Virus record (IMG/VR): IMGVR_UViG_3300032007_000017
DNA length: 64,000 bases
Source: a virus
Lineage: Duplodnaviria > Caudoviricetes
Reading direction: 5' to 3' (one strand)
The notes under the pieces are model-generated. The model ran no database searches and was not told the origin of the DNA. It saw only the letters and a list, made by a program, of their open reading frames with translations. Position 1 is the stretch's first letter; each line of letters opens with the position of its first letter. Made by a program: the position numbers and the translations under genes. Below, one piece after another: positions 6,669 to 9,423 of this stretch.

Positions 6669-6857
6669 ATGAAGAAAAAGTTCTTTAGCCCACTCGATAT
6701 GGCGGATGCCATGTTCAACCTTGGTTACACAAGAGAGGAGATCGAGGACAAGATCTCCTCAATGCTCGAAGACTCAATGGACATCTATGGGTTTCACGAG
6801 GAAACTCAGGAAACCCTTCAGCGTCAGCATGATGAGGCTATCCCTCCCGAGTGGTGA
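6669..6857 (+). CDS. Small acidic early protein
   Basis: 62 aa; TATATTAT at 6603-6610; leader hairpin 6621-6640; AAGGAG RBS; terminator 6860-6894. Confidence 0.8.
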   Translation: MKKKFFSPLDMADAMFNLGYTREEIEDKISSMLEDSMDIYGFHEETQETLQRQHDEAIPPEW

Positions 6858-6859
6858 GG

Positions 6860-6894
6860 AAAAAGAAAGGGCTGTAAAAGCCCTTTCTTTTTTT
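6860..6894. terminator. Bidirectional terminator
   Basis: AAAAAGAAAGGGC-tgtaaaa-GCCCTTTCTTTTTTT between convergent genes. Confidence 0.85.
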
Positions 6895-9423
6895 AGAATT
6901 TAGGTACAGAAGTCTTACCAACAGCATCAGGAAGTTTGAGTGTTAAATTATAGATTGCTTGATAAGCTTCATTACCACAGTTACGAATCGGAGTTCCTCC
7001 CATACCAATAAGATTAAAGTTCTGATTCATAACATGCTCGAGTTCCTCATTAGCCTCATCTGTGTATATTGGTTTCACGGTAATCGTATCGCCATCGTAA
7101 TCTAGATTAGTAAATAGTATTTACGGTAAGATAAATATTATTTTTTTTTACTTAAGTTCGCAATTCTTAAGCGCTTTCGCTTCTCATACTTTCGTATGAG
7201 TATAGATCATATGTTCACCCTTCTCTTTCGAGTTAGGGGCAGGATTTTTCTTCTGCCGTAAGCTTGCAGTTCTACTCTCCCGTCAGGAGATGATCGTTGA
7301 ACCTTCACCATTTTACAGGCGAGTGGCTGCTGAATTCCCATTTGCGATACCTGAGTTTTAGGATTTAACCATGACCCATCCTAATTACTTTTTTCTACTT
7401 TCGTAACCATCACGCTTGCCTTTTCAAGCTACGTTGTGGTGAATTAGGCTTTAGGGATTGCCAGCAATTAACCCTGGAAACTTACTCATTACTGAATAAG
7501 CTGAGATTACCATTAGGCTACTCCATTAAGGCCATCGAGATACAAATTACAGATATTAGCCGAGTCTACAAACATATTGGATGTATTGTTTCCAATATCA
7601 TCCTGGCGTATATATGGATAATTCTTATAGAACTTTCCATCTATTACCATAGGCTCTGTTTTATTGGTAGAGTTTACATGGATTCCAATAGGAAATTGAT
7701 TGTAGATAGAATCTCAATTGTGTTCAACTAGGGTCGCTAATCCTAGCCCGCTTTATTCAAGCTGCACTATGTCACCATAGTAGTTCAGACTATATCACCA
7801 TCTCAGAGAGATGTTCCGCATTTCGACCCGCTTGGGCCTACGTCATAAAGACTAGTCGTTGAGCCTTCCTAGCACATCCTTTTACTCTAGGCTTGGTTGC
7901 TGATTGTCTCATTTTGAGAGTTTCCAGCAATTAACGGAATTTTCTTAATAGATCGCTCTATTAAGCCACGAATTCATGGGATATCTACATATAATAGCTT
8001 TACGACCTTCAGCAGCTTCTACAGTTGCAATATAGATCAGGTCACACCATGTAAACCAACGTTCAACAATAGGCATATTGCCTACACCAGATTCGTATTC
8101 TTCTTTAGTTACATTGAATCCTTTAAAATGAAGGTAGATCTTTCTACCATCAACAGTTTCAACTTCAATAGGAAGTAATCTGGTCGAATAACCATTGCAG
8201 AAACGGTTAAGTTCTTTACGCAATCTCTCTTCAGAAAATTGCATTTGATAGTCTTTAATATAGACTATCTCTTCTTTTCCTGTCTTGGGATCAATACAAG
8301 GAACTCCTTTATTTCCAGAGAAAGCGTTTTCAAAATACCTCTTCATATGGAAGATGACAAAAGGAGTAAAGTTTGCTGCTGCTGATGCAAGAGGAATGGC
8401 AGCATAATCCAAGTCAGCCTGCATGTCTTCGATCTTTTCAACCTTCAATTCAGGGGCTGACATAACAAGACGAGAAGCATAGTCGGTGGTCTTAGACATA
8501 ACAGAACGTCTAAGAACACCAAGCTTACCAGGAACATTAGGTCCTGTAGTAGTACCATTAATAGTAGTACCATTTCCAAAATAGTCAAAGATCTGAACAA
8601 TCGACATTTGAATACGACCACGAGTAGCTCCAGCCATATCCAATCCATAGTCAGTAGATTCTTTAAGAGCTTTAGTAGCGAGAATCAGATTACGATAGAG
8701 TTGATTAATCTCTCCGATAGAGATTCTGCCACCCTTAGATGTATCCACATCTCGTAATGCAGCAGGAATAACAACTATCTTTCTAATCCATGCACCAGGA
8801 TCTCGTTTACAAGCATTGATAAAATCAACGTCTTGATCTCTACGGATTGATGCTGTTCTTGCTACATTGATTTTCTCAAAGTTATCCTTTAAGAACTTCA
8901 ATCCAGTCTTACCGTGTTCAGGATCTTCTACCAATACTCCATTATCAGTAATGGAGAAATATTTCGTTTCATTAACACAAGCAGGAATCTTCTTATCAAG
9001 CTTAGACCATACTTTATAGAGTTCTGGACTCATAAACCACTCATGAAGATCAATATAAGCACAAGTGTTCATACGATCATACATAGTGATTCCAAAGATC
9101 TCATTGGATAATAGTCCATCTGAGGTAGGAATATTATTTCTAGAGAAAGTGATTGGATTGGTAATGGGCTTTAAATCATTAACCGAAACCAATCTATCTA
9201 CATCTAGAAGATTCACTCTCAGATGCTTAGGTCTCACTTGATTTCCATCTTCATACAGAAAGTTTTCAATCAAGAATCTCATGAAACCTTCTGCTTTATC
9301 TGCACTTTTTACTTTAGTAGGAGTATTATACCTGTCATCATAGTTTTCATGCTTGGCAAATAATTCAGGATCTTCATTTCCTAAATATCCACCATTTCTA
9401 ATACTATATGGTAAAATACCCAT
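6893..9423 (-). CDS. DNA-directed RNA polymerase beta'-like subunit (N-terminal plus catalytic part; probably virion RNAP). Three exons: 9423-7976, 7714-7521, 7101-6893; about 616 aa spliced
   Basis: SDGLLSNEIFG (cf. DGLFCERIFG), GKLGVLRRSVMSKTTDYASRLVM (cf. [23 protein letters not shown]); splicing restores CRYPIDSIYNQFP and DGLNGDYDGD; late promoter 9442-9453. Confidence 0.9.
7102..7520 (-). mobile_element. Group I intron 2 inside the DYDGD active-site codons (~419 nt, no ORF)
   Basis: P AATTGCTGGCAA, Q AATTCAGCAGCC, R GTTCAACGATCA, S GAACATATGATCT; guide GTAATCTC complementary to the ligated junction GAG|ATTAC; boundary uncertain by 1 nt. Confidence 0.88.
7715..7975 (-). mobile_element. 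Group I intron 1 in the RNAP gene (261 nt, no homing endonuclease ORF)
   Basis: P AATTGCTGGAAA, Q AATCAGCAACC, R TCAACGACTA, S GATATAGTCTG; 5' exon CCAU pairs with GUGG (U.G pair); terminal G at 7715; removal restores the reading frame. Confidence 0.92.

Follow-up and report, generated by a model that had tools for sequence, protein, structure and literature searches.

How does a group I intron that sits within the catalytic codons of an RNA polymerase (RNAP) gene define its 5' splice site when the U.G wobble pair usually found there is missing? The wobble ranks among the most conserved features of group I introns, with the group B IStrons as the one documented exception, and its absence raises this question for a 64,000-nucleotide (nt) stretch of viral DNA (hereafter the window) that forms part of a 178-kb IMG/VR virus record (IMGVR_UViG_3300032007_000017; completeness estimate 72%). 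On its minus strand the window carries a three-exon gene (9423..6893) whose product is ~30% identical to AR9 g145, BpSp gp212 and LPJP1 rpoC1 by tblastn, and which on this homology is the N-terminal beta' subunit of an AR9/PBS1-like jumbo-phage virion RNAP. An earlier note had claimed that a group I intron at 7102-7520 splits the DYDGD motif of this gene, and this is borne out by its RF00028 core, by the coding frame and by a 61-pair structure. The explanation that we favour, to which we assign a probability of about 0.8, is that this intron (intron 2 of the gene) is a working group I ribozyme of the IStron (IS607-type) lineage, without an open reading frame (ORF), that lies in the DYDGD motif of the virion RNAP and splices after a G. 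By analogy with the group B IStrons, a related lineage for which it is already known, splicing after G is not new; the earlier note was right about the missing U.G but overlooked that splicing after G is a known trait of that lineage.

The splice junction of intron 2

Intron 2 and the exons that flank it are arranged as follows:

7521..7714, minus strand: exon 2, 64 codons plus split codons, with the 3' end ...LNG + G (...CTT AAT GGA G)
7520..7102, minus strand: intron 2, 419 nt, putative IStron-type group I ribozyme without an ORF; borders from coding and the terminal G
7102, minus strand: terminal G (omega-G) of intron 2, the sole G usable with DxDGD in frame
6893..7101, minus strand: exon 3, AT-TAC-GAT-GGC-GAT... 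to the stop codon

The intron starts TAGCCTAATGGTAATCTCAG at 7520 and ends ...ACTAATCTAG at 7102, interrupting the first Asp codon of DYDGD, the Mg-binding catalytic motif. Joining the exons (AAT GGA G + AT TAC GAT GGC GAT) restores N-G-D-Y-D-G-D, and the predicted ligated junction reads ...AATGGAG + ATTACGATGG. Intron-free homologues read G(G/A/N)-G-DYDGD at this place, as do dozens of full-length metagenomic relatives, and a 95% identical relative (L008; L-numbers denote the sequences compared) is uninterrupted across the window's insertion site (AATGGAGATTATGAT).

Because AG is present at both borders, cuts after GG, GGA or GGAG yield an identical mRNA. The earlier note had listed GGAG| and GGA|, both of which are indeed possible, and had missed the third register, GG|. 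Among these equivalent registers only GGAG| leaves a terminal G, and we favour GGAG|UAGCC...CUAG|AUUAC, in which the 5' exon would end in G and the first intron base would be U. A U at the 5' exon end paired to a guide G is thus not what intron 2 has, its exon G being paired with C.

An alternative junction with a U-ending exon, which the earlier note had held possible, was sought by exhaustively scanning 5' and 3' cut positions around both junctions, with an open frame and DxDGD required. Not one of the 608 open-frame combinations that retain DxDGD pairs a U at -1 with a terminal G. The sole G able to end the intron is the one at 7102, and with it the G of GAT has to come from the exon. We rejected joining AAUCUAGAU to an exon that ends in U (CUU| or AAU|), as this gives N-L-D rather than N-G-D and a terminal U, and likewise a cut one base later (GGAGU|), which brings a frameshift or changes the first Asp to Val. 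Nor can exon 3 be expressed separately, as the in-frame stop at 7124-7122 is not followed by any start codon before the DYDGD codons.

Recurrence in independent assemblies and selection on exon 3

A sequencing error at 7521-7524, named in the earlier note as a possible source of the unusual junction, is excluded: contigs from ENA (L010) and from Logan (L011; SRR9008756) match the window at 100% identity across the 5' junction. Both junctions are present in a ~3% diverged strain (L022; Logan SRR25030049), and a 270-kb ENA contig shows the same gene spacing. We also observed that the Logan contigs reaching intron 2 (L008, L011-L016) stop inside its core, which is repeated three times in the genome and thereby accounts for the breaks; full 3' ends came from L022 and from a further relative, L023.

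Where the window and L022 differ within the intron (P7.2, P9 and the P1 extension), the helices stay paired, P7.2 for instance changing from CUGC/GCAG to CCAC/GUGG. Codon differences between the two, given as synonymous/non-synonymous, number 34/2 in exon 1, 6/0 in exon 2 and 16/1 in exon 3. The last of these counts implies that exon 3 is translated in the frame that only the intron 2 splice provides, and by this measure exon 3 is under purifying selection. Coding (a G at -1), the recurrent junctions, selection on exon 3 and the compensatory changes together support, at the level of sequence, the claim that an essential gene here carries a non-canonical splice site that must nevertheless splice.

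Structure of the ribozyme

In a 1.3-kb search RF00028 matched 7529..7183 with 34.2 bits (E 1.1e-6), the whole model and core being aligned, and the core helices P3-P8 with the P3/P7 pseudoknot are present. Comparison with homologous introns supports the fold: the 61 pairs of our hand-built structure are 96% paired in 5 related introns, compared with ~40% when the partners are slid, and 11 of the 61 change on both sides across these relatives, a figure reached by none of 500 shuffles. The elements are listed below.

7503..7510, minus strand: guide, GUAAUCUC, from sequence
7523..7521 and 7505..7503, minus strand: P1, exon GAG with guide CUC, from the minimum-energy fold
7510..7506 and 7101..7097, minus strand: P10, guide GUAAU with 3' exon AUUAC, from sequence
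7509..7518, minus strand: P1 extension hairpin GCC-UAAU-GGU, from folding; a G.U becomes G-C in L022
7481..7500, minus strand: P2, 8 bp with a GUAA loop; 4 of the 8 pairs change on both sides among relatives
7336..7476, minus strand: P3 5' strand, P4 5' strand and P5 with a ~120-nt extension, from the RF00028 alignment and comparison of relatives
7205..7333, minus strand: P4 3' strand, P6/P6a, P7, P7.1, P7.2, P3 3' strand and P8; compensatory changes in P7.2 and P3
7169..7200, minus strand: P9 (GAAA loop) and P9.1; a C-G becomes U-A in L022
7112..7143, minus strand: AU-rich stem of 12 bp (11 A-U and 1 G.U) just upstream of the 3' splice site; fold z = -3.7, kept in L022

The guide GUAAUCUC is the exact complement of the ligated GAGAUUAC and lies two bases 5' of P2, the expected place for a guide, in the context GGUAAUCUC-AG; the statement in the earlier note that it pairs perfectly with the joined exons and leaves no U.G wobble was correct. 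We estimate the chance of such an 8-mer complement within ~13 possible positions at ~2e-4. In L022 the guide is GCAAUCUC, with the loss of one P10 pair. The P1 that Rfam draws for intron 2 (UGGAGUAGC/GCUUAUUCA) was rejected: what it takes for the 3' strand of P1 is in fact the 5' side of the P2 hairpin, and P2 covaries in every relative.

The enlarged region that had been noticed between the P and Q elements is also real. These elements are the two strands of P4 (intron nt 55-60 and 188-193), and the 127 nt between them constitute a P5 extension common to the related introns. P7 (GAUCA/UGAUC) contains a G-C guanosine site and varies among the 4 relatives that cover it at one pair only, from A-U to G-U. 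No ORF of at least 50 amino acids (aa) was found wholly inside 7102-7520.

Relationship to IStrons and to phage introns

By blastn the intron 2 ribozyme matches IStrons on Clostridium botulinum plasmids, among them the one examined by Zedaveinyte et al. (NC_015417.1; bioRxiv 10.1101/2023.11.20.567912); for a C. botulinum element that carries TnpB (L024) the identity is 71% over 290 nt. According to Tourasse et al. (2014; PMC4227781), group B (IS607-type) IStrons follow a 5' exon whose last base is G and themselves begin with U, whereas elsewhere the 5' exon base is ‘virtually always a U (or exceptionally a C)’. In that work the group B U-G pair is shifted one base past the splice site and followed by an internal loop, targets end in GG (AG in CsISt1), the 3' end is CGG (CAG in CsISt1), and a long AU-rich stem of 15-34 bp lies near the 3' end; splicing of BcISt1 after G was demonstrated by reverse transcription PCR, and how group B ribozymes choose their splice site was left as an open question (PMC4227781). 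Our literature keyword search for natural exceptions to the wobble returned nothing useful apart from IStrons.

Intron 2 shares with the group B IStrons (BcISt1, CboIStron, CsISt1) a homologous ribozyme, a G at the end of the 5' exon, an intron that starts with U and an AU-rich stem before the 3' end (12 bp, against the published 15-34 bp). Insertion after AG is shared with CsISt1 in particular, ORF-less copies are known for BcISt1 as well, and TnpB is present in a sister copy (L023) and in a paralogue (L019), both described below. The window copy differs in having neither TnpA, TnpB nor a guide-RNA region, and in residing in the catalytic motif of a jumbo-phage RNAP. From its homology to IStron ribozymes, the AU-rich 3' stem and the precedent for G at -1, intron 2 is best described as an ORF-less member of the IStron lineage rather than a one-off anomaly; being ORF-less, it would have lost its transposon cargo or never carried any.

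Canonical phage introns of the IA type with P7.1/P7.2 (T4 td, Staphylococcus Twort/K-like), together with intron 1 of the same gene, resemble intron 2 in their P1-P9 layout, in P7.1/P7.2 and in the terminal G, and canonical phage introns likewise interrupt a catalytic codon that is highly conserved; blastn gives 66-74% identity to introns of Staphylococcus and Enterococcus phages. They differ at the splice site, where they (and intron 1, CCCAU|G) have a U at -1 with a guide G, and intron 2 has a G with C. Two introns likewise interrupt g145, the homologous gene of Bacillus phage AR9, one near RYPI and the other inside DYDGD, although at other positions (RYPIEQYR|N and DYD|GD), and those of AR9 carry homing endonuclease genes.

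A sister intron, paralogues and other relatives

A sister intron occurs in DRR5955xx relatives (L008, L012-L016, L023) with a core nearly identical to that of intron 2. The codon that it interrupts is that of the third Asp in DYDGD, and its insertion point lies 12 nt downstream of that of intron 2 (GATTATGATGGAG|CGAAGC...); in these strains the window's site is uninterrupted. Its 5' exon is AUGGAG, its guide UCUCA and its 3' end UUCAG|ACACU, with G|AC encoding Asp. One intron family thus occupies two AUGGAG^A sites 12 nt apart, both with a G at -1 and the guide UCUCA. The 3' half of the sister was obtained from L023, a contig that overlaps L016 by 31 nt and has a P3 strand able to pair with that of the sister (CUGG/CCAG, where the window has CAGG/CCUG); the sister encodes a 406-aa TnpB. 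Some 200 nt separate the TnpB stop codon from the 3' splice site, a segment that could be a guide RNA.

Another observation concerns the exon downstream of the sister site. At window positions 7072-7089 (minus strand), the six codons that follow this site (DTITVK) all differ from L023 at the third position, and the 60 codons beyond them contain only 14 base differences between L023 and the window/L022 alleles. These 18 nt are where a TnpB guide and P10 would pair, and their divergence may reflect target escape or co-conversion.

Two ribozyme paralogues, 76-77% identical, lie at GGTGT sites in another RNAP gene of the same genome, outside the window:

G000:C1:146416-146717: paralogue p1 (L018)
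G000:C1:149386-149684: second paralogue (L019), with a 421-aa TnpB

In p1 a terminal G is compatible with two exon ends only, a G (GGUG|) or a U-A pair that lies two bases upstream of the wobble (GGU|). A related intron in an unrelated structural gene (L021:1740-3140; IMGVR_UViG_3300045988_115068), which holds a VSR-type endonuclease ORF, permits a terminal G only with an exon that ends in G, and shows a one-base offset (GUGG|U...CGUG|U against GUGGU|...CGUGU|). The register with U.G at -1 forces a terminal U in both p1 and L021. A single rule fits all of these introns: the last exon base is a G that pairs with C, and the following guide base pairs with the base that opens the 3' exon. This second pair consists of U and G in the paralogue and L021, and of A and U in the window type and its sister.

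The polymerase gene is a hot spot for introns in metagenomic sequences, where truncated products end in RYPI|, GIGG|K or GGDY|K/R/E and indicate that relatives have four or more insertion sites within or beside DYDGD; AR9 g145 has DYD|GD. In L009 (5100-5840) two introns are split by a 6-nt mini-exon, GATTAT, which encodes Asp-Tyr (GGTGGT|intron|GATTAT|intron|GATGGTGAT), and both have normal U.G splice sites. IStron-type ribozymes, with or without TnpB, colonise the catalytic codons of jumbo-phage RNAPs.

Proposed mechanism and competing explanations

We infer the following scheme for the chemistry, for the choice among the three registers and for the way in which P1 pairs. The last three exon bases, GAG, would pair with the guide CUC in a short P1 that the small GCC/GGU hairpin prolongs; because the exon G is Watson-Crick paired to C, no U.G wobble would form at the splice site. 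The guide U adjoining CUC would be unpaired or bulged opposite the splice site, where it faces the first intron base, U, which is also able to pair with the next guide base (U-A); in the sister the first intron base is C, likewise opposite the guide U and likewise capable of a pair (C-G) with the guide base that follows. An external guanosine held in the G-C site of P7 would attack after the exon G, the 3' exon AUUAC would pair with the adjoining guide GUAAU as P10, and the terminal G at 7102 would move into the guanosine site, whereupon the exons would be joined into ...N-G-D-Y-D-G-D....

It is speculation that the bulged guide U stands in for the wobble. A broader proposal, to which we give a little less than an even chance, is that the window type and its TnpB-bearing sister have abandoned the wobble both at the splice site and one base after it, so that an unpaired guide U faces the scissile bond and the site is set by helix geometry and P10. 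If true, this would provide natural evidence on the question of splice-site choice by group B ribozymes left open by Tourasse et al. Intron 2 and the sister are natural variants of the IStron lineage without even the shifted wobble, apparently maintained by selection in an essential phage gene.

Several observations weigh against the explanation that we favour. The RF00028 score of 34.2 bits is below the gathering score of 50, a detection threshold and not a structural feature; it is lowered by large insertions in P5 and P7.1/P7.2 and by the mis-modelled P1/P2. P1 consists of three Watson-Crick pairs with the exon and no more, and P7 is shorter and weaker than that of intron 1, its outer UCA/UGA pairs being lost. 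Intron 2 ends in UAG and not in the CGG or CAG of group B, although the sister ends in CAG. The shifted U-G at +1, which is present in the paralogues and in L025, is replaced by a U facing U (in the sister, a C facing U), and the group B precedent may therefore not fully carry over. Finally, with no TnpA or TnpB in this copy, intron 2 is an ORF-less relative rather than an IStron proper.

The AG at both borders also counts against our choice of register, as it makes the three registers inseparable by DNA and coding, and in none of them is the pairing of the guide with the ligated exons interrupted. The same intron and mRNA could then arise from a cut with A at -1 and a terminal A (GGA|G...CUA|G) or from one with G at -1 and a terminal U (GG|AG...CU|AG). 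We regard either as quite unlikely, given that the normal G-C guanosine site in P7 calls for a terminal G, that the sister and L021 allow a terminal G only with G at -1 (paralogue p1 also via GGU|), and that BcISt1 was mapped after G. An unlikely possibility is that P1 is slipped, with exon AUGGAG and guide UCUCA aligned as U-A, G-C, G.U, A/C and G.U so that a reversed wobble falls at the splice site. Such a pairing can be drawn for the window type and the sister type alike, and it would set the last exon G opposite the guide U, where canonical relatives have the guide G of their U.G; counted from P2, this U indeed occupies the slot of the conserved guide G of the paralogues, Staphylococcus phage PT94 and L021. 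The slipped helix has two Watson-Crick pairs instead of three, however, plus an A/C mismatch, and the minimum-energy fold prefers GAG/CUC, while the pair that the first intron base can form with the following guide base, U-A in the window and C-G in the sister, agrees with an unslipped register in which the U is bulged.

The remaining explanations would deny that intron 2 matters for expression or that it exists as assembled. A missing wobble, a short P1, a weakened P7, the lack of a homing gene and a record only 72% complete might suggest a recent, poorly splicing or dead insertion in a gene that is being lost or has a second copy to compensate. AR9/phiKZ-like phages, however, need their virion RNAP subunits, and the same arrangement recurs in at least three assemblies and in the ~3% diverged strain, where the intron shows compensatory changes and exon 3 has 16 synonymous codon differences against 1 non-synonymous, making a dead insertion very improbable. 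The metagenomic source of the record, and the many Logan contigs that break inside intron 2, could raise the suspicion of an assembly or sequencing artefact at the junction. The repeated core accounts for those breaks, and with 5' junctions identical in ENA and Logan assemblies and both junctions in L022 we consider the chance of an artefact negligible.

The host gene, intron 1 and neighbouring features

Upstream of exon 2 the gene continues as follows:

7715..7975, minus strand: intron 1, canonical 261-nt group I intron, CCCAU|G...UUG|A; RF00028 93.7 bits
7976..9423, minus strand: exon 1, with the 3' end ...CRYP + AT, from translation

Intron 1 has a U.G pair with a guide G at its splice site and a terminal G at 7715; its removal restores the frame RYP-I-DS, and it is itself ORF-less. 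An 81% identical relative (L007:4997-5842) has an HNH_3 endonuclease ORF inside intron 1, which is absent from the intron 1 of the window. Exon 2 is colinear with intron-free homologues. For annotation it matters that gene callers give two fragments of this gene, overlooking the 64-codon middle exon (7521-7714).

Other searches were less productive. Megablast of the polymerase gene against phages gave no match, a search for related loci among viral contigs found no relative, and a pattern scan of metagenome contigs had no match; exact-pattern scans of viral contigs yielded one canonical-looking relative, in another gene, and otherwise no match.

Just beyond the gene, at 6860-6892, is a GC-rich hairpin (AAAGGGCT-loop-AGCCCTTT) with runs of A and T on its flanks. 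It sits between the polymerase gene and a convergent 62-aa ORF (6669-6857), and is probably a two-way terminator.

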